From: a virus | Taxonomy: Duplodnaviria > Heunggongvirae > Uroviricota > Caudoviricetes | DNA length: 64,000 nt | IMG/VR virus record: IMGVR_UViG_3300042691_014730 | Location: 20,856 to 84,855 of that record | Reading direction: 5' to 3' (one strand) | Shown here: in pieces, positions 30,138 to 62,517 of the stretch | How positions within the stretch are numbered: the stretch's first letter is position 1 | How the letters are laid out: every line of letters begins with the position of its first letter | Position numbers and translations under genes: made by a program | The notes under the pieces: model-generated | The model's input: only the letters and a program-made list of their open reading frames with translations | Database searches by the model: none | What the model was told of the DNA's origin: nothing

Positions 30138-30166
30138 ACTATACCACATTTTTAATAAAAAGTCAA
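30138..30166 (-). promoter_or_regulatory. sigma70-like promoter TTGACT-N17-TATAGT with TGG extended -10
   Basis: + strand reads actataccacatttttaataaaaagtcaa; the reverse complement gives the -35 and -10 hexamers. Confidence 0.6.
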
Positions 30167-41543: not shown

Positions 41544-42755
41544 TTAATGAAAGTCAGTATTATCTTTATCCAAATAAGCCTCAGAAATCCATTTTAATGA
41601 CTTTCTAGAGTTAGGACAAGATGGGTTATTATAATCTACTACAGATTTAATCACAATACCTTCTCGTATCTTTTGTGACGGACAATATACTGAATCACCT
41701 TTAGTAAGTTCGTACGCTTGTTCTTTATTAAAAGGTCCAGAGTATAAAGTAGGAACGATATCAAATCCTCGTTCTTTAGCGTACTCTTGTACCTCTAGTG
41801 GGTTTAACCATCTAGTAGAACCGTCTTCATTTAAAATCTTTACATCAAATAATACGAAGTGATGTTCGTTTTTAAATCCGTAATCATAGTTCTTTTGAAT
41901 GCCATGACCTATTAACTCTCCAAATATAGTTTCGTTTGGTTTAATCTTTTCATTAGCTTTTACTTTTTTAAAAACAGCACCGTAAACATCTTCTCCATAG
42001 AATCCAGTATATCCAACTCTGTTGGTTAATTCAACGTTATTAGAACCATAACAAAATTCGTATTTAGGTAATAGTCCTAGTGTATTCTTAATCGATCTTA
42101 AAAACATATTAAGACATGACAACAGAATACTTTTTCTTTCATTAGGTCTAGTTTTTAATAGTTTTAAAGCTGATAGTATTTCCTTAATAGAAGGAACTAC
42201 AGTAGGTAAGTAAGAACAACGTGCGTTACTACCATGTAACTTCTCTTGTATTACTACAATCTCACCTTCTTCGAATAAGTTAGGGAACCATTTAATGTTC
42301 TCAAGTCCGTTGAACTTATGGAACAATGGATTCTCTAGTGGTTTATTTCTAGAAGTCTTTACTGAAACAGAAAACGATGGAGCAGGAGGTTCATACTTAA
42401 CTATTCCTAGTTTCTCTGAAACGTCGTCTTCTTCGTTAATGTTTGATATATTAATTAAGTCTTTAACTTCGTCTAAGTTAATTAACATTCCCTGAGAAGG
42501 GAAGTTTCTGATTCGTATTTGTTTAACTCTGGACTTATGTAGTTTGATTTTACTTCCTTCTGGGAAGAGTTTAGACTCTAGTGAAGGAGGTAGAACTGAA
42601 TCAATAGGAACGTATAATACTGAGTCTCCTACTTTATACTTGTCTTTCTGAATAACTACTTGGAAACCATAAACTGTCGCTACCTCTAGTTTCTCCGCAT
42701 TAAAGTGAGGAGTGATGTTAATGATTTTAGTTAAAGGTACTTTAAATAGTGACAT
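41544..42755 (-). CDS. Rnl2-like RNA ligase (nucleotidyltransferase superfamily)
   Basis: Motif I EKLHGSN resembles Rnl2 KIHGTN. GGAGGG RBS. Gene has its own promoter. Confidence 0.5.
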   Translation of the reverse strand: MSLFKVPLTKIINITPHFNAEKLEVATVYGFQVVIQKDKYKVGDSVLYVPIDSVLPPSLESKLFPEGSKIKLHKSRVKQIRIRNFPSQGMLINLDEVKDLINISNINEEDDVSEKLGIVKYEPPAPSFSVSVKTSRNKPLENPLFHKFNGLENIKWFPNLFEEGEIVVIQEKLHGSNARCSYLPTVVPSIKEILSALKLLKTRPNERKSILLSCLNMFLRSIKNTLGLLPKYEFCYGSNNVELTNRVGYTGFYGEDVYGAVFKKVKANEKIKPNETIFGELIGHGIQKNYDYGFKNEHHFVLFDVKILNEDGSTRWLNPLEVQEYAKERGFDIVPTLYSGPFNKEQAYELTKGDSVYCPSQKIREGIVIKSVVDYNNPSCPNSRKSLKWISEAYLDKDNTDFH

Positions 42756-42923: not shown

Positions 42924-43340
42924 TTAAAAATTTATGCTAATTGCATGTGAAGTTATTCCAAGCGATATAATATTTTCTAGTTTAAGCTCATAATTTTCAT
43001 TTTTATATAATGACATTTTAAAATTAGCCCCTAACACTGGTGTTATACCATAAACAGATGGAGGCATAATGTCCAATTCTTTAAATTCTTTAAAATTTGT
43101 ATTATATCCACCAAACACAAAATCAACATCGTCAGTAATTTTGGTAGATGTTACGGCACCAGTTATTTCACCGCACGCTGAGTCTCTACCTTTTAAAATT
43201 CCTGCTTTAAATTCTTCATCGCCGACCATACCTATAACGTATTCGTTGTGAATAGTTCCGTAATTATTGACAGTATTACAATAAGGCAAGCTGGGTGCAA
43301 GATAATGATTAGTTATACCGCCATAAATTATAGTTATCAT
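42924..43340 (-). CDS. hypothetical protein
   Basis: 138 aa. Confidence 0.3.
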   Translation of the reverse strand: MITIIYGGITNHYLAPSLPYCNTVNNYGTIHNEYVIGMVGDEEFKAGILKGRDSACGEITGAVTSTKITDDVDFVFGGYNTNFKEFKELDIMPPSVYGITPVLGANFKMSLYKNENYELKLENIISLGITSHAISINF

Positions 43341-43816
43341 ACTTTAATATAAACTACTATTTCGTTTTCACCAATAACTTCATTTATAATCTTTTCAATA
43401 ATATTCCAATCTCCACCACCTAACCCTGCTCCGATCTTAGGAATAGCTACTGTCTTACCACGATCTAAATATTTCTCTTTAAGTTTAATAAAGCAATCTT
43501 GTATTGCTTCATAGTCAACATACTGTTTTCCATCATACCCATAATTCTCTTGTGTGAAACAGTTTACTATTGTACGGTTTGGTGCTACTTTAATCGGTTG
43601 TATCATTCCTAATAATATTCCTTCTCCAAATCCCATTGACTTATAGTGTTCACATAATCCGTGATAACTACCTTTCACGATTGGATATCTTTCAGTTATT
43701 GTTTTAGCTAATCCTGAGCCAAACTTACTCTGACAGTTTACTCCATGAGCTATAATCTCACAGTCTGTATTAAATAGATCACCTTGTACGTATTTCAACA
43801 TAATCATAACCTCCAA
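43337..43816 (-). CDS. macro domain protein (ADP-ribose binding or processing)
   Basis: VQGDLFNTDCEIIAHGVNCQSKFGSGLAKTI and IPKIGAGLGGGDW match the macro domain GDIT / hhVNAAN / GxGGV and PxIGxGxxGG motifs. Confidence 0.65.
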   Translation of the reverse strand: MEVMIMLKYVQGDLFNTDCEIIAHGVNCQSKFGSGLAKTITERYPIVKGSYHGLCEHYKSMGFGEGILLGMIQPIKVAPNRTIVNCFTQENYGYDGKQYVDYEAIQDCFIKLKEKYLDRGKTVAIPKIGAGLGGGDWNIIEKIINEVIGENEIVVYIKV

Positions 43817-43961
43817 AACTATTTTCTACTTGTTTTAATTGAAATCCAAACCTAGTTAATATTTCTGCTAGTGGTTGAGATGGATTGTATATCCTTCCAT
43901 TCTGGATACTAGCATATAATAGCTCTAGTACTTCTTCCTTTGTAATTTGTTCTGTTTTCAT
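43779..43961 (-). CDS. hypothetical protein
   Basis: 60 aa. Confidence 0.3.
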   Translation of the reverse strand: MKTEQITKEEVLELLYASIQNGRIYNPSQPLAEILTRFGFQLKQVENSFGGYDYVEIRTR

Positions 43962-44854
43962 TAAAAATCTCCATAATTGACTTGCAGTGTTCTTATATTT
44001 TTATTTCTAAGCATCTTTACTACTTGATCTCTGTCATCTAGTGCGAACTTAATATTGTATTTAGGTAAGATTTCATAATCTAGCAGTATACTCTTCACTA
44101 AATCGTCTCTTCTAAAATCTCCTCTGCTTCTCATTACTAATTCATCAAAGGGTATGTTATTATTTTGTAACCAAGTAGTTGTTAATGTTCTATAATCATC
44201 TGGTCTTCCAGAACAAAGTACTATTTTAGTTCCTTTTTCTTTATAAGTTCTCAGTATATCAACGATATCCTCATAAACCAAGTCATTTATCATATCGTCA
44301 AAGAATCCTTTCCAGTTTTTCTTACCTTCACCGTGTACATGATGTAATCTTTGATCTATATTAGCGATTGTACCGTCGATATCACAGTATATTGCATCTG
44401 GTTTGACTTTTTCGCTGTATTTCTCCGTTAAAACGTTGTCTGCTTCGTCCTCAGTAATGTATTCATACTTACTGAAGAACGTGTTTAAAGCGTTTATGGC
44501 GTGTTTAGACGATGTTATCGTAGGATGGTTTAACCTACATTTCATTCTACTGAAACAAACGCTTAAAGGAACAATAATGTTGTGAATACTTGTAGTATAA
44601 CCTAGTTCTTTTGCTGGCTTTAGGTATCGTTCACGTTGTTGTTTACTAAAATTCATTCGGTCTACTACAATATCGTCTTGTCGTTCTAAAGCTTCTTTAA
44701 ATAATTTTAAATGACCTTCCTTGCCTTGATCGTCTTGCGATATTCTAGTATATCCTATGTAACTTTTACTAAGAGATGACTTACCTGATCCAGGAGGTCC
44801 AACTAATAACACTATGTTTTTCATTCCTTGTCCTCCCATTCTATTAGAAAACAA
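43961..44854 (-). CDS. pnk: polynucleotide kinase / 3'-phosphatase (T4 Pnk-like)
   Basis: N-terminal P-loop LLVGPPGSGKSSL. C-terminal HAD phosphatase motif IYCDIDGTIA (DxDGT). Confidence 0.65.
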   Translation of the reverse strand: MFSNRMGGQGMKNIVLLVGPPGSGKSSLSKSYIGYTRISQDDQGKEGHLKLFKEALERQDDIVVDRMNFSKQQRERYLKPAKELGYTTSIHNIIVPLSVCFSRMKCRLNHPTITSSKHAINALNTFFSKYEYITEDEADNVLTEKYSEKVKPDAIYCDIDGTIANIDQRLHHVHGEGKKNWKGFFDDMINDLVYEDIVDILRTYKEKGTKIVLCSGRPDDYRTLTTTWLQNNNIPFDELVMRSRGDFRRDDLVKSILLDYEILPKYNIKFALDDRDQVVKMLRNKNIRTLQVNYGDF

Positions 44855-47204: not shown

Positions 47205-48827
47205 TTATAAACCACATACTCCACCAACACACTCTGTCATATTTTCTTCAAATATAACTCCTTCATTAGCTAGTGCTTCTTCTAGAGAAACTCTAGTTAA
47301 AGGCTGACCTCCTCGGCATCCGTCTGGATAACAAGTAAATCCTCTTAGTCTCTTTGCGTATTTTAAAAGTATCTTTGCTTTTTCTTCTAACGTTGACTCG
47401 TTATTATTTTCAGTTCCCCACGATGGAATATTACATGTTGAACTTATCGCCATGTCAACATAATTCTGTACGTCTGCTTGGAACTTAACTCTTGTTTTAA
47501 AATCTAAATCATATGAATCTTGTATATCTTCAATTTTAACTCCTTGTTCTAGAAGTCTTTTAACTGATCCATCTATAACATATTGTGATAGCCATTTTCC
47601 TTCTTTGAAATATCTTCTTTTGTATGCTTTGCAAAATAAAGGTTCAATACCTGTTGTTGTTTCAGCAATAATGCCAATAGTTCCAGTTGGTGCTATTGCT
47701 CTTACTCCTTTCGGTACAGATACTCCTAATTGTTTAGCACATACAAAAGCTTCTGAATTTGATTCGTCTTCATATACTGAAAGCCATCTATGTAATTCAG
47801 GAGTTACTTCGTATTTCATTCCTCTAGACATTAACCATTCGTGTATTCCACCTAATCCCAATCCAATTCTATTATTACGATTACCAACTTCTTTAATCTG
47901 TGCATTAGGAACATCCGAATAAAGTCCCCCGCATAATAAAAATTTGGTCGCATACTTTGTGACTTTTCTAAGTTCTTTAGTATCTTTTATTCTATTGATC
48001 CAGATAGTTCCCAAATTACATTTATCGCTATCATCTTCACTAACTACTTCAGTACAAGCATTACGTAGTGTTTCGTTGTCTTTTCTAAAGTTAAATGAAA
48101 ATCCGGGTTCAGCAGTACTGAATGCTTGTTTACAATTTAATAAATAAACTTCCCAAGCACGTTGGTGTAGTGGGTGTGATTCGTTTTCAATTGCAATAAA
48201 AAATTCAGTGTCGTAATTTACTGAAATATTTGTTAGTTCCATATCTAACTGGAAATTAAAATCTTTTTCTTTTTGCAATCTTAATTCTTCTGAATGATTT
48301 TTCATTAAAAGAAATTTATCTATGTCTTGATGTTTCCAATTCAATGACGCATAAATAGCAGATCTTCTCTGACCACCCTGCATAATATTTCTTCCTGCTT
48401 CATTTACCATTCTCATTAATGCTAATGGTCCAGTACTGAAACCACCAGTGCGTTTTACTAAAGCACCCTCTGGTCTAAGAGCAGAGTAATCTACTCCTAT
48501 TCCACCACCAGTCATAAGAGCAGATGTTATTTTATACATTAACTCTGCCCATTCTTCCCTACTATCTCCTGCTCTAAATAAAAAACAGTTATTAACTTGG
48601 TGAAAAGGTCTTCCTGCTGAATAAAGGTATCTCCCTCCTGGAATAAATTTTCTTTCATAAATTATTTTAAATATATTTTCTTTATCTTCTGGACTTAGAT
48701 ACTGACCACACACTGACATTGTGACACGTCTTGCTGTCTCTTCCCATGTTTCTTGACCATTTAATGAATATTTTTGTAAGTAAACGTCTTGACTAAACTT
48801 ATTTGAAAATACATCAAACTTTGACAT
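47205..48827 (-). CDS. ribonucleotide reductase, class II-like
   Basis: GGGIGVDYSALRPEG glycine-rich motif, VNNCF active-site cysteine loop, C-terminal cysteine pair CVGGVCGL. Start uncertain (48827 or 48869). Confidence 0.55.
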   Translation of the reverse strand: MSKFDVFSNKFSQDVYLQKYSLNGQETWEETARRVTMSVCGQYLSPEDKENIFKIIYERKFIPGGRYLYSAGRPFHQVNNCFLFRAGDSREEWAELMYKITSALMTGGGIGVDYSALRPEGALVKRTGGFSTGPLALMRMVNEAGRNIMQGGQRRSAIYASLNWKHQDIDKFLLMKNHSEELRLQKEKDFNFQLDMELTNISVNYDTEFFIAIENESHPLHQRAWEVYLLNCKQAFSTAEPGFSFNFRKDNETLRNACTEVVSEDDSDKCNLGTIWINRIKDTKELRKVTKYATKFLLCGGLYSDVPNAQIKEVGNRNNRIGLGLGGIHEWLMSRGMKYEVTPELHRWLSVYEDESNSEAFVCAKQLGVSVPKGVRAIAPTGTIGIIAETTTGIEPLFCKAYKRRYFKEGKWLSQYVIDGSVKRLLEQGVKIEDIQDSYDLDFKTRVKFQADVQNYVDMAISSTCNIPSWGTENNNESTLEEKAKILLKYAKRLRGFTCYPDGCRGGQPLTRVSLEEALANEGVIFEENMTECVGGVCGL

Positions 48828-48894
48828 TGTAAACCTTTTAATTGAAAAAGGGAAGTGAATTCTTCCCATTAAAGAGTTGTTTACTGATTAAACG

Positions 48895-50391
48895 TTAAGC
48901 TGAAATTTTTTGCTCTTTTAATGTTTTTCGTATATTAGACAAAGTATCGTTGAATAAAAAGTTACCATTAATAAAAATAGGTTTCAACAAATCTTCTTTA
49001 GTGTTAGTTAGTGTTGTATCATCTGAGTATTCTAAAATCCCTTGATCATTTTTAAACACTTTTACTTTACCCTTAGCCGAGTTCTTGGTTCCATCATCTG
49101 TTTTAGGTGCTTTAAATATAGCCTTTTCTGTTCCATTAATTGTAACAGATGTTGCCTTCATTGCAAATCCTAATGTATCTCTAGTGATGTATTGATAAGT
49201 ATAAGAACCAATTCCTAGTACAACGTTAGTTGAAGCGAATCCTTTTTGTTTTAATCTTTCACAAATTTCCTTGCATCTAGTAATTGTGATTGAATCTCCG
49301 TAGATAGCTCCTACTTTTGGATTTAGTAGTTTGAATCCTTGCGGCGTTACTGATCCTCCGAATGTTTCGTAAAGTAATTCAATAACACCTTTGCTCTCAG
49401 ATGAACCAGGTTTAGCTTCAGGGTCACCACAAAGAATATTTACTGGATCACCGCTATCTGGTCGGATAACTACTTTATCTAAAGAGCCTTCTCCTCCGTT
49501 ACGAGCAAGGATAGATTCTTTTAATGAAGGAATAATATTTGTCATTACATTCCATAAATCCCATGTATCTGAAACAATAGATACAATTCCTGTTGGATAT
49601 AAGTCTTCAATAAATCTTCTATATGTTTCTCTTTCATCTTCATATCCTCCAGCACACATACAACTGTGTTCTGAAGCGGGAACCGAGCATCCTACTAGTT
49701 CTTTAGTAACGTCTGCGCCATAATACTGTTCAGCGTATGAGATGGCTGGTAATGTGTCAGTTCCTACAAACGAAAGTAAATGACCTACTCCTGATCTAGC
49801 TGAATCTTCTGGACCACTTTGACCTCTCATAGAAAAGTCGTGTCCTTGGAATTCTACTCCTGCTGTAGAGCCTGTTGTTTGTAAAGCATAATCATCTAAT
49901 ATACTTCTGTATGTGTGAGCAATGCTTGCCGTTGTAGAAGGCTTCCATAGTAGGGAAGATAGAATCGTTTCAAGATAATTAGTTACCCAAAAGAATTCAG
50001 GCTTTGTGTTTTCGATAGTCATCATTGGAACACGATATGGTACTAGAGTACCTTCCTTCAGAGACTTAACTTCAATAGGTAGAAATCCCAAATCGTGTAA
50101 ATCTTCAATGTGTTTTGTTTCAACGTTCGGATTAAATAAATAAGCACTTACTTGTCTTTTGTACTCAATAATTACTTCTTCTTTTGAACGATTGAAGAAC
50201 TGTTTATTAAACAAATCATTAACTTCTTTTAATGCCCCTTGAATACCAAAACAAACTACGTTCTTAATTTCTGGAGCATGCTTTCCAGATCGAGGAATCC
50301 ATGTACTGTAAACGTTTGTAGTGCCTTTTGGGTACTGAATTCTGTGACTAAGTTTATATCCATCAGCTGCTAATGTTGCAATTAAATTCAT
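48895..50391 (-). CDS. nadV: nicotinamide phosphoribosyltransferase (NadV-type NAMPT)
   Basis: N-terminal LAADGYKLSHRIQYP resembles the NAMPT DSYKxxH signature. About 500 aa. Own consensus promoter. Confidence 0.65.
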   Translation of the reverse strand: MNLIATLAADGYKLSHRIQYPKGTTNVYSTWIPRSGKHAPEIKNVVCFGIQGALKEVNDLFNKQFFNRSKEEVIIEYKRQVSAYLFNPNVETKHIEDLHDLGFLPIEVKSLKEGTLVPYRVPMMTIENTKPEFFWVTNYLETILSSLLWKPSTTASIAHTYRSILDDYALQTTGSTAGVEFQGHDFSMRGQSGPEDSARSGVGHLLSFVGTDTLPAISYAEQYYGADVTKELVGCSVPASEHSCMCAGGYEDERETYRRFIEDLYPTGIVSIVSDTWDLWNVMTNIIPSLKESILARNGGEGSLDKVVIRPDSGDPVNILCGDPEAKPGSSESKGVIELLYETFGGSVTPQGFKLLNPKVGAIYGDSITITRCKEICERLKQKGFASTNVVLGIGSYTYQYITRDTLGFAMKATSVTINGTEKAIFKAPKTDDGTKNSAKGKVKVFKNDQGILEYSDDTTLTNTKEDLLKPIFINGNFLFNDTLSNIRKTLKEQKISA

Positions 50392-50417
50392 ATTTATATT
50401 CCCTTTGTTTTATAATT

Positions 50418-50446
50418 ACTATATCATACTTTTGTCATTTAGTCAA
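50418..50446 (-). promoter_or_regulatory. sigma70-like promoter TTGACT-N17-TATAGT
   Basis: + strand reads actatatcatacttttgtcatttagtcaa; the reverse complement gives the -35 and -10. Confidence 0.6.
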
Positions 50447-50638
50447 GTCTTTTCCGAAGATTTTTTTGTTCATTTTTTGTATAAATGGAATACCGAAAGC
50501 AACGATAGCACATAGTACATGTATTGTAATAGCTAATGTTCTAAAATCATTTTGGCTGATAGGTGCAAATATTAATAAACACCCAAAGAAAAATACACTA
50601 GATGCTATTGTAATTCCTAGTTTTAAATCACTTAACAT
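50435..50638 (-). CDS. small two-TM membrane protein
   Basis: 67 aa. Confidence 0.35.
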   Translation of the reverse strand: MLSDLKLGITIASSVFFFGCLLIFAPISQNDFRTLAITIHVLCAIVAFGIPFIQKMNKKIFGKDLTK

Positions 50639-50868
50639 TTAAACTCCTTAGTAATAGTTTTCCTAAGTGTAATATTACAGCCAATAAAGTAAGTCCTCCT
50701 AGAATTGGAAGTTCATTTGAACGATGACTAAATAGGTATGGTAGTAAAAAACCAAAGTAAACAATTGCTGAAGCAATGATAATAAATAACTTAATAATAA
50801 CTCCTTTGTTAATAACGGCGACAGCTCGCCACTCTCACCACTTAAGCGGGGGTGACCCTGCACAGTAC

Positions 50869-51723
50869 TTATTTAATATTAATAAACGGAATAGCGTTGC
50901 TTCCTGTCATGGTCGGTAACTTACCATCCCATCTTTGGATGGCTTCATATTGAATAAGTTCAGATGTTAATGTTTTTAACTTTAAAGCGTTTGATTTAGA
51001 CTCAGCTTCAGCAATAGCGATCATTGATTTAGCTCTACCTTCTGCTTCAGCGATTTGTTTCTTAGCTTCTGCCTCTGCTTCTCTTAACTCATTCTCTCTT
51101 TGTTGAGCACGTTGTGTAGCTTCGATCTTAGAGTTCAACGCATTAACTACGTTGCTAGGTAATCGAATAGAACCGATTAAATAAACCTTTTCAATTAAGA
51201 TTCCGTTACTCTTTAAGTTAGTTCTTACAATCTCTTCTACCTTAGAAAATAACTCTGCTTTACCTGATCCATATACTGATTCAACATTCATCGTAGAAGC
51301 TACAGTATTTAGAGCGTCTCTAATAGCATTCTTTACTACAATAGATTTAATCTCATCAATGCCCTTTCTATACTTTTGAAATAACTTACTAATTTTTTCA
51401 GCGTCAACACTAAAAGTTACACCAACGTCAATGTTACAAGAAAGACCTTCTTGTGTTTGAAATGTAAAAGATTCATCTGTTTCCGAATCCTCTTGTTCAT
51501 CAGCTGTATATACTTTTGTTTGTTGAAAAGTAGGGAAGATGTATAGTTCTTCATTAATACCAATGAAGTATCTACCTACTCCAAGTACTTCGTGATCTAC
51601 CCCTTTGTCTTTTCCTAGTAAATAAATCTTGACTCCGACGTTTCCTGCTGGAACTTTAGAACATGATGTTGTTAGTGTTACTCCTAACAGAATAACAAAA
51701 GCTAACGTAATAAATCTAATCAT
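50869..51723 (-). CDS. SPFH (band 7 / stomatin-prohibitin-like) lipoprotein
   Basis: Lipobox LTTSCSK. Ala/Glu-rich EAEAEAKKQIAEAEGRAKS...IQRWDGKLP segment typical of SPFH or HflK/C. Confidence 0.6.
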   Translation of the reverse strand: MIRFITLAFVILLGVTLTTSCSKVPAGNVGVKIYLLGKDKGVDHEVLGVGRYFIGINEELYIFPTFQQTKVYTADEQEDSETDESFTFQTQEGLSCNIDVGVTFSVDAEKISKLFQKYRKGIDEIKSIVVKNAIRDALNTVASTMNVESVYGSGKAELFSKVEEIVRTNLKSNGILIEKVYLIGSIRLPSNVVNALNSKIEATQRAQQRENELREAEAEAKKQIAEAEGRAKSMIAIAEAESKSNALKLKTLTSELIQYEAIQRWDGKLPTMTGSNAIPFINIK

Positions 51724-52477
51724 TAATTTCTCCTTTATAAGTAAAGATTCGGTTAATACCTGAATCTCTTAATGTTTGAATACCTTTAGTAAATAATCCA
51801 TGTGATACATACAAATCAACATTCGATACTTTGTGTTTATTTAATAATTGTTCAGCGACTAATTTAAATGTTCCTCCTCCATCACATAAGTCGTCAACAA
51901 TTAAACATCTCTTATTTGTTAAATCTTCTTTGGATAATAAATCCATTCCAATAATGTTACCAGTTAATTGATCTCTTGTTTTTTCGAAATAGACTTTAGT
52001 ATGGTTTGGTAAATAGTATCTTAAACTTGCTCCTTTGTCTGGGTATACTATAATATCTGCATCTGTTTTAATGAACGTGTGTTTTATTATTTCGTTAGGC
52101 AATACATTCACAAACCTTTTTATACCGTGGTTATTTGAATGTACATCTACACTCGATACTTTATTAAAGTTAAAAGAATTAATTATGTTAGAGAAAGCTT
52201 GAAGACCAAACGTTGTATTATTACTAACCTCTTTATCTTGTCTGGCATAAGGTAAATAAGGAATAAACAGTTCACCTCGTTTTTCTTCAATACTACCGAT
52301 CAATAATCGTAACTGACAAACGTTTATTAATTCCGCTTCGTTTTCAAACTGCCATCTTATTTCGTTATAATATGAGTTTCTGATTTTAGAATAGACTTCA
52401 TCTGGAAGTTTCCATACTTGACTACATTTATCTGGGAACATAGTTGGTTTGACTAGGTATCCATTAATATATATCAT
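51716..52477 (-). CDS. phosphoribosyltransferase-domain protein, probably PRPP synthetase-like
   Basis: PRPP-binding loop CLIVDDLCDGGGTF. Directly upstream of SPFH and two genes from NAMPT. Exact family uncertain. Confidence 0.45.
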   Translation of the reverse strand: MIYINGYLVKPTMFPDKCSQVWKLPDEVYSKIRNSYYNEIRWQFENEAELINVCQLRLLIGSIEEKRGELFIPYLPYARQDKEVSNNTTFGLQAFSNIINSFNFNKVSSVDVHSNNHGIKRFVNVLPNEIIKHTFIKTDADIIVYPDKGASLRYYLPNHTKVYFEKTRDQLTGNIIGMDLLSKEDLTNKRCLIVDDLCDGGGTFKLVAEQLLNKHKVSNVDLYVSHGLFTKGIQTLRDSGINRIFTYKGEIND

Positions 52478-52478
52478 A

Positions 52479-52721
52479 TTATTCTCCGTATGTTACTTCA
52501 TCAATAACTTCCTCGATAGCAGATGTTTCAGCCGTAGTTGGTTCTCCACTATAAAATTTTTTAAGCTCCTCTAATGAATCAAGTAAAGCTGGGATAGGTA
52601 CAGCAAACTTATGTCCTTCATGTTCTAATATAACTCCGTCCTTATTTCCTTTTAATATTCGAACCGATGCCTCGATTCCTTTTTCACTTGTTTGAATGTA
52701 TATAACTAATTCTTTTCTCAT
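52479..52721 (-). CDS. hypothetical protein
   Basis: 80 aa. Confidence 0.3.
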   Translation of the reverse strand: MRKELVIYIQTSEKGIEASVRILKGNKDGVILEHEGHKFAVPIPALLDSLEELKKFYSGEPTTAETSAIEEVIDEVTYGE

Positions 52722-52722
52722 A

Positions 52723-53094
52723 CTAACTCCTTTCGAGTATTCGAGTTTTGTTTATATTAATAGCGTCTTCAGTAGGTTTATAATCATTATTGAATTCCAT
52801 GGGGAATTGACAGAAGATACTACTATCTCTAAAGCTAGGATTATATCCTCTTCTTAACATTTCAGAAACTAATTGTTCGTATCTGTTTTTTAGATAAATC
52901 ATTTTATCATAAAAGAATTTTACATGTCCTTTACCTAGAGTGTACTCATTGGGTATTTCAGTTAAACTAAAAGGAGATGTTAATCTATTCAATGACTTCT
53001 TAAGATTATTTGGAAGTCTAGTTATTTCTCTATACTCAGCTATAAGGTGTTTAGTACTAAGAGTTTCGACTGGAACAACGTTTATTCTAGTCAT
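52723..53094 (-). CDS. denV: pyrimidine dimer DNA glycosylase / AP lyase (T4 endonuclease V-like)
   Basis: MTRINVVPVETLSTKHLIAEYREI and GKGHVKFFYDKMIYLKNRYEQLVSEMLRRGYNP closely match T4 DenV [24 protein letters not shown] and [33 protein letters not shown]. Start set at MTRIN (53094), because the tabled start lies in the promoter -35. Confidence 0.75.
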   Translation of the reverse strand: MTRINVVPVETLSTKHLIAEYREITRLPNNLKKSLNRLTSPFSLTEIPNEYTLGKGHVKFFYDKMIYLKNRYEQLVSEMLRRGYNPSFRDSSIFCQFPMEFNNDYKPTEDAININKTRILERS

Positions 53095-53104
53095 AGACCT
53101 CCTT

Positions 53105-53133
53105 ATTATATCATATATTTTATAATTTGTCAA
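53105..53133 (-). promoter_or_regulatory. perfect sigma70 consensus promoter TTGACA-N17-TATAAT
   Basis: Reverse complement reads gcTTGACAaattataaaatatatgaTATAATaaggaggtctATG. The -10 sits only about 11 nt from the denV ATG. Confidence 0.65.
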
Positions 53134-53864: not shown

Positions 53865-54440
53865 TTATCTCCTTAGTTGATATTCAAATCTTAGTTTATG
53901 TTTCTGTTTAATTACTTTAGCTTTACCTTCTTTTATAAGTTCTTGAAACTTAATTGCAGCTTTAGTATATTCTCCGTTCAGTTTAGCATATAGTTGTCTT
54001 ATGTGTACTTTCTTTCCATCGTCCAACAATAGTACTCTAGGATTAGGAGTTTTTTCTGCTCCAGTAAATACGAAGTTACTGGCTTTATATATTGTTCCAT
54101 TGTGTCCGACATTAGGATCGGTGTACGATAATACATACGGAGGAGTATCTAGTTCTTTAAGAAGTCTTAATGTCTTCCCTAAGAAGAAAGACTCTGTATT
54201 CTTTTGTGTATTATCTATTAAACAGAAGCGTCTTAATTCTATATACTTATCATTATCAACATTAGTACCCATTGGTTGTCCGTATATTGCAACACCGACT
54301 AGAGTGTTATCGTGTGTTCTTAACGTAAAGACGTGCTTTTGTTTTAGCGATCTATATGATTTAGAATAGTGCCATTGAACAATGAAGTCCATGATCTCCA
54401 CACTTAAAGCTTCCTCTTCAACTTTATATATATCTTTCAT
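53865..54440 (-). CDS. hypothetical protein
   Basis: 191 aa. Confidence 0.35.
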   Translation of the reverse strand: MKDIYKVEEEALSVEIMDFIVQWHYSKSYRSLKQKHVFTLRTHDNTLVGVAIYGQPMGTNVDNDKYIELRRFCLIDNTQKNTESFFLGKTLRLLKELDTPPYVLSYTDPNVGHNGTIYKASNFVFTGAEKTPNPRVLLLDDGKKVHIRQLYAKLNGEYTKAAIKFQELIKEGKAKVIKQKHKLRFEYQLRR

Positions 54441-54642
54441 CTACTATTCTCCATTTCTTTAATTGTTCTTTTATACTTAACAATTTAGTAAATTCAAATC
54501 CTCCGTCACACATTAGTTTATTATTTTCTATATATAGATAATCATGTTTTAACCAGTCAGAAGCTTGTACTTTGTGTCCTTGTTCCATCTTTTCTAAAGC
54601 TTCAATGAATGTCATCCACTTTATTTTTTTATTATTTTTCAT
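54424..54642 (-). CDS. hypothetical protein
   Basis: 72 aa. Confidence 0.3.
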   Translation of the reverse strand: MKNNKKIKWMTFIEALEKMEQGHKVQASDWLKHDYLYIENNKLMCDGGFEFTKLLSIKEQLKKWRIVDERYI

Positions 54643-57703: not shown

Positions 57704-57979
57704 TTATACTACCTCATCTAATTCTAGAGGGTGTGCCATTCTTATTTCATTAGTATTACTTATCGGTCTTAAGTATACAATATGAATTGAACTAGGGGCA
57801 CCACTAAACCAATTAGGTTTCTTAGTAACTACAAATATTTCTCCTAACTCACACATATCATATATAGATTTTATTCCTTTTTTAAAAGTTACTGTATTAT
57901 ATGTATATTCATCATGATTATCAAAGTCCTTTACTGTGCGATTCAGTATTACCAAGTCATTAGTTTTGAATAGATTCAT
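57704..57979 (-). CDS. hypothetical protein
   Basis: 91 aa. Confidence 0.3.
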   Translation of the reverse strand: MNLFKTNDLVILNRTVKDFDNHDEYTYNTVTFKKGIKSIYDMCELGEIFVVTKKPNWFSGAPSSIHIVYLRPISNTNEIRMAHPLELDEVV

Positions 57980-58523
57980 ATTGAATTCCTTTTATAACTT
58001 GACATACCTTATTCAATGTTTCTTTATTTACATCTGTACATAGATACTTACAAACATCTGTTAAGTCTTGTAATAAATAATCTTCTAAATAAAATTGTAT
58101 TTCATTATTTAAAATCTTTAACAATTTTCTTGTGTCTCTTTTAATAAGATAATACTGATTAATTTTTTTATCCTGTGGTAACCAATCGTATAGTAATATT
58201 AAAGCCCCAGCATGAGCCAATATTTCTTCGTGTAATACATCAACTTCTTCTTTTAATTTATTTAAAGTTATTCTATTTAATCTATTAAACCTACCAGTCG
58301 AATGTATTATTTCATGAACTAAAGTAATTTGTGCCCAATATCTATTTAATAACATTTCATTATTTAATGCTATAATATCTAAAGGTATTAGATATTTACC
58401 ATATGCATTGATCTCATTTGTAATTATAATTTTAGGGAGATTTATAGTATTTAATGCTAGAGTATTGTTCATTGCTTTATTAAGCTCGACGATTGATTGA
58501 TCCATTTGTTCCCCTTTGTTCAT
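57960..58523 (-). CDS. HExxH zinc-metallopeptidase-like protein
   Basis: ITLVHEIIHSTGRFNRL. Overlaps the ATP-grasp gene (translational coupling). Confidence 0.4.
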   Translation of the reverse strand: MNKGEQMDQSIVELNKAMNNTLALNTINLPKIIITNEINAYGKYLIPLDIIALNNEMLLNRYWAQITLVHEIIHSTGRFNRLNRITLNKLKEEVDVLHEEILAHAGALILLYDWLPQDKKINQYYLIKRDTRKLLKILNNEIQFYLEDYLLQDLTDVCKYLCTDVNKETLNKVCQVIKGIQYESIQN

Positions 58524-59274
58524 TGATGTATTGAACTATATTGTTTACCCATATATCTAAATTCAAAGAGTTAAGTCCAGGACTTGAATTAACTTCTATT
58601 ACATAGAATCGTTTCTTATCTCTGTCGAATATAATATCGACACCACCGAATAGTAACCCTAATCCTTGTACTGCTTTAATACACATTTGTTGTGCATTAT
58701 AATTACAAGTAGATATTTCTGGATTACATTTTCTGAACTGACAGTTATGTGATTTATATATTTTAACATTAGAATCATTTGGTATCTTCTCGTAAACACC
58801 TAATATCTTACCATTAAATACATGAACTCTATACTCTTTCTTATTACTAATAGGTCTAGTAATGTATAGATCATTAGGTCTAAGTTGGTTATCATATCTA
58901 ACCACCATGTCTCTACCTCTAACATAGAAGTAACCAGATGAATCTTTAAATCTTTCAATATCAAATGTATTTCTATCGCCTTCAATTAAATCGAAATACT
59001 GGGGAGTTCTAACACCTTCTATTAACTTAAGACTCTTTAACATATAATGTTTGTTAGATGCTTTCTTAACAGCTAGTCTATCATTTAATGTTAATGTCTG
59101 ACCACTATCAGGAGTTCTACTTTCTCCCCAACGAATTGTAACGGCTGATTGTTTTGGTGTCATGTATTCTCTAACTCTTCTAACTCTACTGAATAGTCTA
59201 GAGTTTTTAAGTTTTAAATATAATGACTTACCTGTCTTACAGGATTTGTTTGAATAACAAAAATTAATAAACAT
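58480..59274 (-). CDS. ATP-grasp ligase (RimK / glutathionylspermidine-synthase-like)
   Basis: C-terminal FYVIEVNSSPGL is the characteristic ATP-grasp E-x-N...PG motif. Product about 260 aa. Confidence 0.55.
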   Translation of the reverse strand: MFINFCYSNKSCKTGKSLYLKLKNSRLFSRVRRVREYMTPKQSAVTIRWGESRTPDSGQTLTLNDRLAVKKASNKHYMLKSLKLIEGVRTPQYFDLIEGDRNTFDIERFKDSSGYFYVRGRDMVVRYDNQLRPNDLYITRPISNKKEYRVHVFNGKILGVYEKIPNDSNVKIYKSHNCQFRKCNPEISTCNYNAQQMCIKAVQGLGLLFGGVDIIFDRDKKRFYVIEVNSSPGLNSLNLDIWVNNIVQYINEQRGTNGSINRRA

Positions 59275-59452
59275 AACAATCTCCTATTTTTTTATATCTA
59301 TTTGAATGTGGACCAAGCGTAGATGAGTAATGATCGAATCCATTACAAGCCGCAGTACTCCAATAAGTATAATAATTATAGTATGCTCCTGATTCCCTTT
59401 TCTCAAAAAGAACTAGTCCTTTAAATACTATATCAAAATATAATTCAATCAT
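59264..59452 (-). CDS. hypothetical protein
   Basis: 62 aa. Confidence 0.3.
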   Translation of the reverse strand: MIELYFDIVFKGLVLFEKRESGAYYNYYTYWSTAACNGFDHYSSTLGPHSNRYKKIGDCYVY

Positions 59453-59684
59453 TTTTTACCTCACATATAAGTTTCAATAACTCTCCTTTAACAAACCTAG
59501 AGTATCTCCTGTCGTGTATTTCAAAATCAGATGTTCCAACATTACCCAAATAATAATACTGTATAATATCAGCCATAGGGTCAACACTTAAAACAATCAC
59601 TAATCTATTTAGATTATTAGCAGAAAAGAAATTACCATATTGGTTACCTTTTGTTGTTAAGTATAGACAGTTTGGTTTATACAT
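59445..59684 (-). CDS. hypothetical protein
   Basis: 79 aa. Confidence 0.3.
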   Translation of the reverse strand: MYKPNCLYLTTKGNQYGNFFSANNLNRLVIVLSVDPMADIIQYYYLGNVGTSDFEIHDRRYSRFVKGELLKLICEVKND

Positions 59685-59685
59685 A

Positions 59686-59934
59686 TTATCCTCTTTTTGA
59701 TTTTAACTGACCATCTTTTGTTAAAGTTATATTATCTTTAATAAGTTGAAGTACTGTACCAATTGCTTCATATTCATCTGAATTAAAAAAGTCCCACTGT
59801 TCTTCTGATATAATACCAGTTTCTTGAAAATCATACATATTATCAGCTAATGTGTACATATCTTCAATTGCTTTATCTAATGCTTCCAATAACTTATCAT
59901 TTGATAATGTAACCTTTTCATTATTTATTTTCAT
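59686..59934 (-). CDS. hypothetical acidic protein
   Basis: 82 aa. Confidence 0.3.
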   Translation of the reverse strand: MKINNEKVTLSNDKLLEALDKAIEDMYTLADNMYDFQETGIISEEQWDFFNSDEYEAIGTVLQLIKDNITLTKDGQLKSKRG

Positions 59935-59943
59935 ATGTTCTCC

Positions 59944-61044
59944 TTAGTATTGAATGCTATAAGGTTGACTATCACTCATGTAAGCATCATATAATAGTTG
60001 CATCTTTGTCTCATAATCTAAACTATTTAATACGTTTTGTTCGTCACTAGATAGTTTAAGAAAGTATTCATTTAATGTAGATGCTATTTTATTAATTTCT
60101 AGTATATCAACTTTAGTTTTCTTAACATCAGAGTATTTAGAATCCGAGGCTTCTTCGTTATTATACAACCAGTTATATGATTGACTATGGTTTTCTTCCC
60201 ATCTGTTTCTGCTAGAGGATAACCTCCGTGACCTACTTGATGTAGTCCAATTAGTTGAAATTGTTCTAGTAATGTCAGTGACTGAAATAGGTTCTCCAGT
60301 AATTGCATCTACTCTTAGTAACTTGTTATCATACAGTGGGAAACATCTAGGCTTTTTCCAATTAAGTTTATCACAAGTATTCTTAATAATATCATCACTT
60401 GTACAGATAACCATGCCACCTAACTCTTCTACTTGAGCCAAGAATAAAGGGGCATTATTTTTAAATACATCTAATATACTTCTACCATCTGATTGTTTAG
60501 ACAATACAGCTACTCCCCAATAACCTTGTAAAGCATCTGTTGTTTCCTGAATCTTAGCTTGATTATTCTGAACATCATTCTTAAGATATTCATTTAAGAT
60601 TGTTTCAGAGTCACAAGTTGAAATAACATTTGTTAATGTATGTGAGTTATTAATAATACCATTGTGAATTAAAGCAGTATTACCTATAATAAAAGGGTGT
60701 ACATTTTCAAATGTCCTAGCACAAGTTGCGAATCTTGTATGATAGATAATAGATTTAACATCTTCAAAATTCACAACACCAGTTGTAGAATATTCAGTTG
60801 GTTCTAATTGTGTAGGAACTTGTTCTTTAAGAACACCCTGATATTTAGCTACTTCAGTTAATGGTTTAACAAATGCTTTCTCTACATTTAGAAATCTTTC
60901 AGAGAACATATTACCTTGTCCATCAATTGCGGCATAACCTAATCCATGACTATCTGATTTAGTCATATCAGCTTTAGATGCAACCATAAATTTTCTAGCG
61001 TTCAATCCGTTCTTAATACCAAACATCACCATAACTTTACACAT
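59944..61044 (-). CDS. class II (Ntn) glutamine amidotransferase-like protein (YafJ/GATase_4-like)
   Basis: Starts MCK (Cys2 nucleophile position). DSHGLGYAAIDGQGNMF and HTRFATCARTFENVHPFII resemble the NGDGFG and H.R.AT.G....N.HPF motifs. Confidence 0.5.
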   Translation of the reverse strand: MCKVMVMFGIKNGLNARKFMVASKADMTKSDSHGLGYAAIDGQGNMFSERFLNVEKAFVKPLTEVAKYQGVLKEQVPTQLEPTEYSTTGVVNFEDVKSIIYHTRFATCARTFENVHPFIIGNTALIHNGIINNSHTLTNVISTCDSETILNEYLKNDVQNNQAKIQETTDALQGYWGVAVLSKQSDGRSILDVFKNNAPLFLAQVEELGGMVICTSDDIIKNTCDKLNWKKPRCFPLYDNKLLRVDAITGEPISVTDITRTISTNWTTSSRSRRLSSSRNRWEENHSQSYNWLYNNEEASDSKYSDVKKTKVDILEINKIASTLNEYFLKLSSDEQNVLNSLDYETKMQLLYDAYMSDSQPYSIQY

Positions 61045-61053
61045 ACTTACTCC

Positions 61054-62517
61054 TTATGCAAATGCATTAATATTGTTATTAATATAATCTAAAGATGTCT
61101 GAGGAATATTTTCAATATAATTAGGAATCGTTTCAACTTTTCTTGGAGCAGATTCTAATTTAGTTGATTTGTTTACAATAGGTAATAAGAAGTTAATCCA
61201 GTTACTAATCTCAATACAATCAACAGTTCCTTTATGTACTCTAATCTCTAATGTTTTATGACGAGCATAAGACATAGGATTAATAACTAAATATCTTTCT
61301 GATCTACCTCTATGTCCATCTTTATATGAATATTTTTCAATATCAGCAAATTCAGTTGGCTTACAATATGTATTGCTTCTACGTTCAATAGGTTGTGAAT
61401 CAATTAAAAACTTTTGCATCTTAACTAAATTATGAAACGCAGTAGCAACATCTCTATTTCTCATATCTAAATGAACGTGAAGACCACAAGAACTATTAAC
61501 TGAACATTTAGCATCTTGTAATGCAACTCCTAATTGTTTAAGAATATCTTCTCTCTTAGATTCAGGAAGCAACACTCTAATTTCATGTGTATAATTATAT
61601 CCATCTGAAGTTCTTAATGAACCATCGGAAGTAACATTTGTCCACTTTTGGAGCTTATGTTTAATGAGAATATTTTTAAGCTCAGTAACGTCTGACTTAG
61701 AAATTAATTCAATTTCAATACCAATAAAGTTTTCACTATTGAAAGGAACTTTCTCGTCATTAATATAGTTGGATTGAATGTGGTTATATAATTTCAGATA
61801 CTCTTCTGGTTTAGAATGTACCTTACCTAACAAGGTAACTGAACCAAATTTATTTTTAATAACTTTCTCAACTAATTTCTTAGAAGCACGTTCCTCTCGG
61901 ATTAAAGAATTTAATGCGACAAAAGCTTTTAACTTTGCATTCTTTAAATCTTTTTTAATAATATCCTTTCCTGCTTCATTGACTGAAATAGTTGGCATCG
62001 GAATACTGATCTCTTTCTTAACTCCATTAACAATTCGACTAGCTTGTACAAAGATTTCAGCGTTTAATATGTTACTAATCTTAGCTCTGTTTTCTCTGAT
62101 CTTAGTAGATAAAGTAGACTCCTTATCTTTAGAACCTTTAAGCTTTAACTTCTGCTGTTGTCTATCTAAGTCTTCTAGCTTTTTTGTATCTCTTAATAAA
62201 GTAAATAACATTGTATTTTTATTATCACTCTTATTAACAATTCTAATCTTAAAGTCTTTAGGATAAATAACTTTTTCATACCTACTAAACACTAGATTAT
62301 CTTTTAGTACAATGAACTGAGTACCGACTGGAACTTTAATTTTCTTAGAGTCAACAGTAATTATTACATCTTCGTATGTTTCGATTGTACAATACTTATC
62401 ACTTAAACTATACTCACCAATGTATTTAACTTCTTTGTTTAAAAAGAATGTACCTAGTTTGTTGTCTCTGTCCTTTGCAATTTTGTAAATACTTCCTAAT
62501 TCTAATTTTGTTGACAT
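61054..62517 (-). CDS. amidoligase-like (glutamine synthetase / GCS2-fold) protein with a novel N-terminal domain
   Basis: C-terminal half contains GIEIELIS (G-x-E-x-E), CGLHVHLDM (H-x-H) and RYLVINP...EIRVHKG, consistent with the Amidoligase_2 / carboxylate-amine ligase fold. Recalled from memory, not searched. Confidence 0.4.
   Translation of the reverse strand: MSTKLELGSIYKIAKDRDNKLGTFFLNKEVKYIGEYSLSDKYCTIETYEDVIITVDSKKIKVPVGTQFIVLKDNLVFSRYEKVIYPKDFKIRIVNKSDNKNTMLFTLLRDTKKLEDLDRQQQKLKLKGSKDKESTLSTKIRENRAKISNILNAEIFVQASRIVNGVKKEISIPMPTISVNEAGKDIIKKDLKNAKLKAFVALNSLIREERASKKLVEKVIKNKFGSVTLLGKVHSKPEEYLKLYNHIQSNYINDEKVPFNSENFIGIEIELISKSDVTELKNILIKHKLQKWTNVTSDGSLRTSDGYNYTHEIRVLLPESKREDILKQLGVALQDAKCSVNSSCGLHVHLDMRNRDVATAFHNLVKMQKFLIDSQPIERRSNTYCKPTEFADIEKYSYKDGHRGRSERYLVINPMSYARHKTLEIRVHKGTVDCIEISNWINFLLPIVNKSTKLESAPRKVETIPNYIENIPQTSLDYINNNINAFA

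Follow-up and report, generated by a model that had tools for sequence, protein, structure and literature searches.

A 64,000-nucleotide stretch of a Caudoviricetes genome (IMG/VR record IMGVR_UViG_3300042691_014730, positions 20,856 to 84,855; hereafter the window, whose own numbering is used throughout) very probably encodes the core of NARP1, a phage system that restores NAD+, in the form of two genes that are split from one another. The first is predicted to encode a short-form ADP-ribose pyrophosphate synthetase (Adps, 253 amino acids) and the second a nicotinamide ADP-ribose transferase (Namat, 498 amino acids); they lie 1.3 kb apart on the same strand with two conserved genes between them, and the Namat homologue is thus at most 10 genes from Adps. 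The assignment draws on evidence that we observed directly: the families to which the sequences belong, their diagnostic residues, their place in trees, the fold and the association of the genes. The enzymatic steps and phenotype would follow from homology to characterised systems.

NARP1 is defined by a Prs-like gene that occurs together with a NAMPT-like gene. For this pair, Osterman et al. began with a scheme in which Prs makes phosphoribosyl pyrophosphate (PRPP) and Nampt makes nicotinamide mononucleotide (NMN) (their Fig. 1B), and then disproved it (bioRxiv 10.1101/2024.02.11.579819). An earlier note on this DNA, made from the letters alone, had picked out two open reading frames (ORFs), 51716-52477 and 48895-50391, both of which are present on the minus strand where it placed them. 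Its suggestion that the phage uses the pair to restore NAD+, as in modules that counter NAD+-depleting defences, is borne out by the Adps and Namat discriminators that the two proteins carry. The chemistry that it proposed, from ribose-5-phosphate through PRPP to NMN, is not supported: the discriminators are those of Adps and Namat, not those of Prs and nicotinamide phosphoribosyltransferase (NAMPT), and the scheme is the one that Osterman et al. refuted for such a pair of genes.

The Prs-like protein is a predicted short-form Adps

The 253-residue protein carries a PRPP-type loop (LIVDDLCDGGGTF, residues 192-204) and matches the Pfam family Pribosyltran. Its AlphaFold model (pLDDT 88.8) shows the full two-domain PRPP-synthetase fold, with TM scores of 0.72-0.77 to the E. 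coli, human and archaeal Prs, and the best 50 PDB fold matches listed for the model are all PRPP synthetases. These results agree with the Prs-like phosphoribosyltransferase fold and loop described in the earlier note, and a two-domain Prs fold over the full length rules out the single-domain phosphoribosyltransferases (APRT, HPRT, ComF) that it had considered as alternatives. Fold comparison cannot separate Adps from Prs, and the Adps structures are newer than the PDB copy used; for this distinction we relied on sequence discriminators.

The sequence discriminators consistently placed the protein with Adps: firstly, it scored below all curated Prs cut-offs of NCBIfam (76.2 versus 296 bits; for TIGR01251, 72.9 versus 113 bits); secondly, in a comparison of hidden Markov models (HMMs), a model of six phage Adps or Adps-like proteins, none of them from the window's subfamily, gave 171.7 bits as against 47.1 bits for a model of six canonical Prs; thirdly, a neighbour-joining tree (500 bootstrap replicates, unrooted bipartitions) placed the Adps references and the window family on one side and every Prs, those of class III among them, on the other in 98.4% of replicates. 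An archaeal class III Prs fragment, used as a control, scored 62.8 bits on the Adps HMM and 116.9 bits on the Prs HMM. Left out of the model, the validated ICP1 Adps scored 168.2 bits on the Adps HMM, and the window protein is therefore as Adps-like as a proven Adps. It also matched phrog_619 at 193.8 bits.

Structures of NARP1 enzymes (PMC12774641, PMC13586617) allow the comparison to be carried to single residues. The conserved residues F14, R79, H113, D147, K166 and D195/D196 correspond to F18, R87, H121, D161, K185 and D212/D213 of ICP1 Adps, K166 being the equivalent of the catalytic beta-hairpin lysine (K185 in ICP1, K162 in SPbetaL1) and the others belonging to the acceptor site. The pyrophosphate-binding (PP) loop reads CDGGGTF at residues 198-204, as compared to CDGAASF in ICP1, CDGGATF in PAK_P4 and IDTGGT[LI] in Prs; in ICP1 Adps this loop (C215-S220) and the lid F221 are remodelled for the ATP donor, conserved among Adps and distinct from Prs. 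The lid residue (Phe204) and the TGxI beta-hairpin are both present in the window protein, and the C-terminal regulatory alpha11-alpha12 module of Prs is absent, the alignment stopping at ...FTYKGEIND and the AlphaFold2 model ending after the strand at 241-246. Together, these data support a predicted Adps of short form.

The public gene call for this ORF (P0001) is 241 residues long and starts at Met13. Since the invariant residues N5, T12 and F14 (the last equivalent to ICP1 Phe18) are placed upstream of Met13, we take the 253-residue start to be correct and the deposited call to be truncated.

The NAMPT-like protein is a predicted Namat

The 498-residue protein carries AADGYKLSH at residues 8-16, matches Pfam NAPRTase (E = 4e-39) and NAMPT_N, and scores 543.7 bits against NCBIfam PRK09198 (cut-off 405), well above what chance would give and in keeping with the NAMPT family named in the earlier note. 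A phmmer search of the PDB matched it to the SPbetaL1 Namat crystals (9W5X/9W5W) at 605 bits, above the 451 bits that the validated ICP1 Namat reaches against the same entries, as compared to ~225 bits for the true NAMPTs of human, rat and mouse and 210 bits for a bacterial (Xcc-like) NAMPT, 7yqo. Its identity to the Namats of SPbetaL1, FADO and ICP1 is 56.7%, 55.9% and 49.3%, respectively, as against 29-33% to the enzymes of KP15, Aeromonas phage 25 and human (a check of the human sequence gave 1131 bits over residues 1-491); a neighbour-joining tree split the Namat group from these three with 100% bootstrap support. Scores of Namat-like matches in tblastn were bimodal.

The residues that set Namat apart are also in place. 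The adenine-clamp motif GSYTYQYITRD (residues 395-405, including Y397 and Y401) parallels GSYTYQYVTRD of ICP1 and GSFTYQYNTRD of SPbetaL1, whereas KP15, Aeromonas phage 25 and human NAMPT read GGGLLQ... at this position. The catalytic core is identical throughout in the alignment: D10, Y12, F186, R189, D212, H242, R310, D312, G365, D366 and R404 align with D13, Y15, F189, R192, D215, the catalytic His, R306, D308, G360, D361 and R399 of SPbetaL1 Namat, in which mutation of R306 (window R310) kills NARP1. Of the two findings that, according to the earlier note, would speak against its reading, a loss of NAMPT catalytic residues and a different phosphoribosyltransferase in the Prs position, neither was seen. 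These data identify the 498-residue protein as a predicted Namat.

Two PDB entries annotated only as 'Nicotinamide phosphoribosyltransferase' (9ke8/9keo) matched the window protein at 470 bits, 9ke8 being its second-best PDB match. Because true NAMPTs reach ~225 bits, these entries are probably another Namat; comparison with the ICP1 protein ruled out that 9ke8 is ICP1 Namat.

Adps-like and Namat-like genes occur together in related viruses

We examined 80 IMG/VR loci of the Adps subfamily, 70 of which were distinct. A Namat-like gene lies on the Adps strand no more than 3.1 kb away in all 70, and downstream in 68. Of these loci, 47 have no more than 150 bp between the two genes, 10 have 151-500 bp, another 10 have 501-1500 bp and 3 have more than 1500 bp, so that an interrupted layout (gap above 150 bp) occurs in 23. 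Interrupted cores have been validated experimentally, as in the Adps-phosphatase-Namat arrangement of Vibrio phage Gary (bioRxiv 10.64898/2026.01.28.702374) and in the DyoEdafos NARP1 locus, which has RyDEP inside it. The aromatic clamp is present in 64 of the 70 Namat-like partners, and 25 loci carry a Macro homologue. Among bacterial and archaeal genome contigs, a Namat-like neighbour was found in 14 of the 22 loci with a CDGG-type PP loop (32-46% identity), at one further locus that gave no PP-loop match (L106), and beside none of the 57 weaker matches (23-34% identity, without a CDGG-type loop).

This association bears on an explanation in which the Prs-like gene serves nucleotide supply, as a minimal class III-like PRPP synthetase working with the ribonucleotide reductase (RNR), dNMP kinase and dUTPase, and lies near the NAMPT-like gene by coincidence. 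The best sequence match to a solved structure is indeed the Thermoplasma class III Prs (52 bits), many genes of nucleotide metabolism lie in the window, and the two genes have apparently separate promoters. However, a PDB ranking could give only Prs, given that the Adps structures post-date the copy searched; the window family grouped with the class III Prs fragment in 1% of bootstrap replicates, as against 98.4% for the Adps clade; and a same-strand Namat-like gene within 3.1 kb in every one of the 70 viral loci is not coincidence. We consider a nucleotide-supply role very improbable.

Prs-like genes of the Adps type, with a CDGGRTF loop, occur in Roseiflexaceae, Thermoflexus and Chloroflexota metagenome-assembled genomes (MAGs) (L114, L116, L118-L120, L124), and no Namat-like gene was found in their 4-kb flanks, some of the contigs being short and its absence unproven. 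Another relative (L015:8298-11467) has Adps and Namat followed by a 215-residue ORF and a NADAR-domain protein and, 2 kb further on, a 149-residue CTP_transf_like protein that is possibly related to NMN adenylyltransferase (NMNAT), an unusual mix of NARP1 with a nucleotidyltransferase.

A proposed direct route to NAD+ and its alternatives

If the pair acts as the characterised systems do, it would come into play when a host defence (Thoeris TIR, DSR1/2, SIR2-HerA, SEFIR or similar) cleaves NAD+ to ADP-ribose and nicotinamide. Adps would move the beta,gamma-pyrophosphate of ATP onto the terminal ribose of ADP-ribose, yielding ADP-ribose pyrophosphate (ADPR-PP) and AMP, and Namat would then swap the pyrophosphate of ADPR-PP for nicotinamide, releasing NAD+ directly; neither an NMN intermediate nor an NMNAT would take part in this NARP1 route. 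In the SPbetaL1 system, Adps converted ADP-ribose and ATP to ADPR-PP and was without product in a Prs-type assay; Namat favoured ADPR-PP over PRPP and made NAD+ directly, and only NAD+ when both donors were offered; NARP1 rescue was independent of the host PncC and NadR (bioRxiv 10.1101/2024.02.11.579819).

The route of the earlier note would instead have the Prs-like protein make PRPP, the NAMPT-like protein make NMN, and an NMNAT of the host or of an unseen phage gene complete NAD+, in a NARP2-like salvage. Both proteins do match the Prs and NAMPT family models, Namat enzymes keep NMN-forming activity with PRPP in vitro, some relatives in the subfamily pair with clamp-less NAMPT-like partners, at times beside an NrtR-type Nudix regulator, and at least 20 kb of the source contig lies outside the window. 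Against this, the Prs-like protein misses every curated Prs cut-off, scores 125 bits higher on the Adps HMM than on the Prs HMM, and has an Adps-type PP loop and no Prs C-terminal module; the clamp of its partner is a complete Namat clamp, and this partner falls among the validated Namats with 100% bootstrap support; the SPbetaL1 Adps gave nothing in the Prs-type assay, and its Namat, with both donors, made only NAD+; and Osterman et al. reported no phage with both pathways (bioRxiv 10.1101/2024.02.11.579819). We regard the PRPP route as quite unlikely.

The search for further enzymes of NAD+ synthesis is in line with this. Pfam scans of 91 of the 95 gene-like ORFs in the window, and of a few alternative calls, gave no match to CTP_transf_like (PF01467), NUDIX (PF00293), NadR-type or PnuC families; the four remaining ORFs (51-59 residues) are too short for an NMNAT. 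The window is therefore free of a recognisable NMNAT, as the earlier note had observed. It had read the gap as the sign of a gene outside the window or of a new pathway; because NARP1 yields NAD+ directly, the absence is expected. Neither NARP2 nor NARP3 is supported within the window.

Several observations weigh against the NARP1 assignment. The absence of an NMNAT holds for the 64 kb of the window; the contig measures at least 84,855 bp and may carry an NMNAT elsewhere. The enzymatic activities, like the operon structure and the anti-defence phenotype, are ones that we infer. The window Adps is only 29% identical to validated Adps (SPbetaL1 and FADO), with no more than 38% identity to relatives in cultured phages; its subclade is a short one (240-270 residues, 98.2% bootstrap), known only from uncultured viruses and MAGs and without a characterised member; and at 253 residues the protein is 19-49 shorter than the six reference Adps (272-302 residues), with an earlier C-terminus. 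The position of ICP1 Phe92, which contacts adenine from the RF loop, is Val84 in the window protein; as it is Glu in the validated SPbetaL1 and FADO Adps, this position is not family-defining. The one soft point of the Namat comparison is the variable selectivity-clamp loop (SCL), which in Namats supplies a stacking residue (Arg at the third position, or Lys/Tyr and then a stacking residue): the window protein has Lys37-His38, the corresponding residues being Lys-Tyr in FADO, ICP1 and phage K and Arg40 in SPbetaL1, and the His could stack on the adenine. Adps and Namat also seem to lie in separate transcription units.

A further point concerns the subfamily as a whole. Six of its members (L013, L014, L063, L083, L102, L112) have clamp-less partners (L013:6723-8156 and L014:6792-8243 in the first two), whose clamp helix reads GG[LI]LLQQHNRD, and their Adps-like neighbours keep the identical CDGG PP loop; L014 and L102 also carry an NrtR-type Nudix regulator. 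By the published clamp rule these partners are NAMPT-like, and the Adps subfamily may therefore be functionally non-uniform: either the clamp rule has exceptions, or a PRPP route operates in some of these pairs.

The split layout is kept in a sister phage

Between Adps and Namat lie an SPFH lipoprotein gene (Band_7, E = 7.8e-23) and a 67-residue ORF with two hydrophobic segments, and an RNR-like gene follows Namat; the earlier note had listed the SPFH and RNR genes. The SPFH ORF begins before the Adps stop, with an overlap of 8 nt, and a single nucleotide separates the stop of orf80 from the Adps ATG, which suggests that orf80, Adps and SPFH are co-translated. A perfect consensus promoter apparently drives Adps together with denV, orf80 and SPFH; its -10 element ends 10 nt before the DenV ATG, so that the transcript would be nearly leaderless. 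The consensus promoter that the earlier note had given to the NAMPT gene is there in part: a TTGACT-17-TATAGT site with TGn precedes Namat, with an AAGGG ribosome-binding site between it and the Namat ATG, but it matches the consensus at only 10 of 12 positions, and promoter-like sites are not enriched across the region (30 found versus 43.9 expected). The mechanical ORF starts of RNR and DenV are probably too long; the RNR start is most likely ATG 48827, past a terminator-like hairpin, and that of DenV most likely ATG 53094, because the TTG-start extension holds the perfect promoter and an AGGAGG ribosome-binding site.

The same order of Adps, SPFH, small ORFs, Namat and RNR is found in a sister phage of 84 kb (L011/L021), with Adps 50% and Namat 83% identical. 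Its counterpart of the 67-residue ORF is a 73-residue ORF at the equivalent position (64% identity), and that of orf80 is an 83-residue ORF (L011:5572-5823, 37% identity), with an extra 59-residue ORF before Adps; neither the 67-residue ORF nor orf80 gave a match above threshold in Pfam or PHROG. A 54-residue GTG ORF (50699-50863) was rejected as a gene, as it is not kept in the sister phage. Its 5' part coincides with a locally GC-rich stretch just past the SPFH stop (50820-50870, minus strand, gtgcagggtcacccccgcttaagtggtgagagtggcgagctgtcgccg), in a genome of ~31% GC; this stretch had no Rfam match.

The split of the pair and an Adps shorter than any characterised one could also be taken as decay, in which the SPFH insertion and the C-terminal shortening mark the loss of the pathway and Namat is left as a low-grade NAMPT. 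Yet the catalytic and substrate-binding residues are all intact in both proteins, and the Adps model is confident (pLDDT 88.8). The short form is itself conserved in a large family: it has over 1,100 members in metagenomes and occurs in 453 IMG/VR stretches, and an alignment of a 16-member sample gave a mean column identity of 51%. The sister phage, whose Adps is 50% identical, keeps the split layout, and this implies purifying selection. We give decay very little credence.

The SPFH protein has a conserved lipobox-like LTTSC, judged by a lipobox pattern that we take to be PROSITE PS51257. It is 84.5% identical to its homologue in the sister phage (L011, 6765-7619) and 70% identical to that of a more distant relative (L013, 2706-3542), and is thus much better kept than either Adps, at ~50% and 46%, or the enzyme paired with it, at 83% and 38%. 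A general role as a NARP1 accessory was rejected, given that just 1 of the 70 related viral loci has SPFH between the core genes and that, in L013, SPFH sits 3 kb from an abutting Macro-Adps-partner cluster. For the same reasons SPFH is probably a lineage-specific passenger, reflecting synteny in this lineage, and not a pathway enzyme. A different view would make the SPFH lipoprotein and the two-transmembrane (2-TM) ORF functional accessories of NARP1 or an extra counter-defence, since they stand between Adps and Namat, SPFH is coupled to Adps and the layout is kept in the sister phage; alternatively or additionally, the short Adps subclade would have an altered substrate range. Conceivably the two proteins act at the membrane, the site at which several effectors of NADase or Thoeris type operate, and an altered substrate range, if true, might explain why some members pair with clamp-less partners. 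We hold this view to be unlikely, and favour an ordinary NARP1 core separated by passenger genes.

Companion genes may extend the module

A Macro-domain protein is encoded on the same strand, as the ninth gene downstream of Namat and 5.1 kb from it. Its PDB relatives include the yeast ADPR-1''-phosphate phosphatase Poa1p (6lfq), and it is 48% identical to the Macro protein whose gene abuts the Adps-Namat-like pair of L013, 31% identical to that of PAK_P4 and 31-36% identical to those inside the NARP1 loci of cultured phages. NARP1-AP is assigned where this gene lies within 2 genes of the pair, and the window gene lies further off; in FADO, a validated NARP1 phage, a Macro gene is likewise ~25 kb from the core pair. 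The protein may be an Adpp (ADPR-1''-phosphate phosphatase), in which case the module would be a dispersed NARP1-AP that may feed ADPR-1''-phosphate, the aRES product, into the pathway. A role in RNA repair is an equal alternative, because the gene stands beside a PNKP gene (43961-44854) and near an RNA ligase. An RNA-ligase family match does occur among the ORFs of 29.8-52.7 kb, possibly 41544-42755, and PNKP, Macro and RNA ligase resemble an RNA-repair cluster; PAK_P4 has the same neighbours, namely RNA ligase, AAA_33 kinase, Adps, Namat and Macro.

A 72-residue Tad2-like (DUF2829) protein is encoded 2 kb upstream of Adps and directly upstream of Mom. Besides its Pfam match, it matched phrog_3474 (E = 2.7e-11) and, weakly, the SPO1 Tad2 Gp34.65 (E = 0.016). 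It is possibly a sponge for Thoeris signalling molecules, and as such may sequester these signals separately from NARP1, as a second anti-Thoeris layer.

Comparison with known NAD+ systems

The window pair has its two protein families and clades in common with the NARP1 of SPbetaL1, FADO, E. coli phage Bas63 and Vibrio phage ICP1 (NrsA/NrsB). Its Namat is 47-57% identical to the validated enzymes, with an identical selectivity-clamp signature in the clamp helix. Its Adps shares the catalytic lysine, the acceptor residues and the TGxI hairpin, has a PP loop remodelled in the same way and has likewise lost the regulatory Prs C-terminus, and both genes lie on one strand with Adps upstream. It differs in an Adps that is ~29% identical, belongs to a shorter subclade (240-270 residues) and ends earlier; in the 1.3 kb, with SPFH and the 2-TM ORF, that separate the genes, under apparently separate promoters; in an SCL with Lys-His, not Arg or Lys-Tyr; and in a phage without a close cultured relative.

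Like NARP1-AP (Adps-Adpp-Namat, Vibrio phage Gary; bioRxiv 10.64898/2026.01.28.702374), the window has a same-strand Poa1p-like Macro homologue and a core pair interrupted by an accessory gene, which is the phosphatase in Gary and SPFH here; its own Macro gene, 5.1 kb from Namat and next to PNKP, may serve RNA repair. NARP2 (the Nampt NadV with the bifunctional Nmnat/Nudix NatV, Vibrio phage KVP40) also uses a NAMPT-superfamily enzyme to restore NAD+, but the window Namat is 28-31% identical to the NAMPTs of T4-like and jumbo phages, which we assigned to the NARP2 type where no Adps-like gene is a neighbour, and is split from them with 100% bootstrap support; it carries the ADPR-PP clamp, which they are without, and its companion is a Prs-like Adps instead of Nmnat/Nudix. 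NARP3 (a PnuC-like transporter and a NadR-like enzyme, phage Bas30; PMC13464706) likewise restores phage NAD+, with entirely different proteins. Cellular Prs (classes I-III) and NadV, including prs-like/nadV/nrtR clusters, have folds and catalytic chemistry in common with the window pair, which differs in a PP loop of CDGGGTF versus IDTGGT[LI], the lack of alpha11-alpha12, scores below the Prs cut-offs and the aromatic clamp of the partner.

Genomic context

The window is AT-rich (~26-37% GC per 2-kb window, mostly 29-34%), with a strand switch near 24.3 kb that places the Namat/Adps locus in a long leftward-transcribed arm. On the minus strand, the genes run from the Tad2-like gene through Mom (53865-54440), two small ORFs, the DenV-like gene and orf80 to Adps; then through the SPFH gene, the 67-residue ORF and Namat to the class II RNR-like gene; and on through a 266-residue ORF and five small ORFs to PNKP and the Macro gene (Table 1).

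Table 1. Positions of genes and regulatory features discussed in the text
Feature	Position	Strand	Basis and remarks
Tad2-like (DUF2829) protein, 72 aa, candidate	54424-54642	-	PF11195, 26.3 bits (cut-off 25), E = 1.1e-5
Promoter-like site TTGACA-17-TATAAT, TGn	53105-53133	-	Sigma-70-type; 12/12 consensus match only; upstream of denV, orf80, Adps and SPFH
DenV-like pyrimidine-dimer glycosylase	52723-53094	-	
orf80, conserved 80-aa ORF directly upstream of Adps	52479-52721	-	Kept in L011
Predicted Adps, Prs-like, 253 aa	51716-52477	-	First enzyme of NARP1, by HMM, clade, residues and fold
SPFH/Band_7 lipoprotein	50869-51723	-	Pfam Band_7, E = 7.8e-23; phrog_200 'lipoprotein', 263 bits
67-aa ORF, two hydrophobic segments	50435-50638	-	Two Kyte-Doolittle segments
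Promoter-like site TTGACT-17-TATAGT, TGn	50418-50446	-	10/12 consensus match only; 27 nt before the Namat ATG
Predicted Namat, NAMPT-like, 498 aa	48895-50391	-	Second enzyme of NARP1, by crystal-sequence match, motif and clade
Terminator-like hairpin GGGAAG-aattca-CTTCCC + TTTTT	48850-48867	-	Directly past the Namat stop, before the likely RNR start
Class II RNR-like gene	47205-48869	-	Probable true start ATG 48827
Macro-domain protein, Poa1p-like	43337-43816	-	Pfam Macro, 22.4 bits (cut-off 22); phrog_335 'phosphatase', 150.9 bits

No match to the 8-kb region came up in a megablast search of 50,697 phage records, and a DNA polymerase-like ORF is at most 29% identical to cultured phages; the source phage thus belongs to an uncultured lineage without a close cultured relative. 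This 717-residue ORF (30163-32316, minus strand) has cultured-phage matches annotated as DNA polymerase, the best at 27-29% identity (Salinibacter and Nostoc/Anabaena phages), and a family B polymerase Pfam match is present in the set of ORFs that includes it. A scan of genome contigs for a host gave no close prophage (identity at most 46%), and Rfam and tRNA scans of the window were empty.

Further upstream on the minus strand (57960-62517) lies a cluster of genes for an MPTase-PolyVal-like metallopeptidase, a RimK-type ATP-grasp protein, GATase_6 and Amidoligase_2. Together with Mom, this set recurs in L011 and L013, which suggests a peptide or DNA hypermodification system.

Implications

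We regard the module as most probably a further NARP1, set apart by the divergent short form of its Adps, by an SPFH insertion specific to the lineage and by possible companion genes for counter-defence. Automated annotations of such genes as Prs and NAMPT mislead, and the apparent NMNAT gap vanishes once the pair is seen as NARP1. The analysis thereby adds a divergent NARP1 from an uncultured phage lineage and documents a large short-form Adps subfamily without a characterised member. For specialists, the most useful by-product is the set of Adps-like genes outside the window that have clamp-less NAMPT-like partners, which form a natural test of the published selectivity-clamp rule. As for the phage itself, as many as three counter-defences centred on NAD+ may be combined in its genome: NARP1, a Tad2-like sponge and a phosphatase resembling Poa1p.

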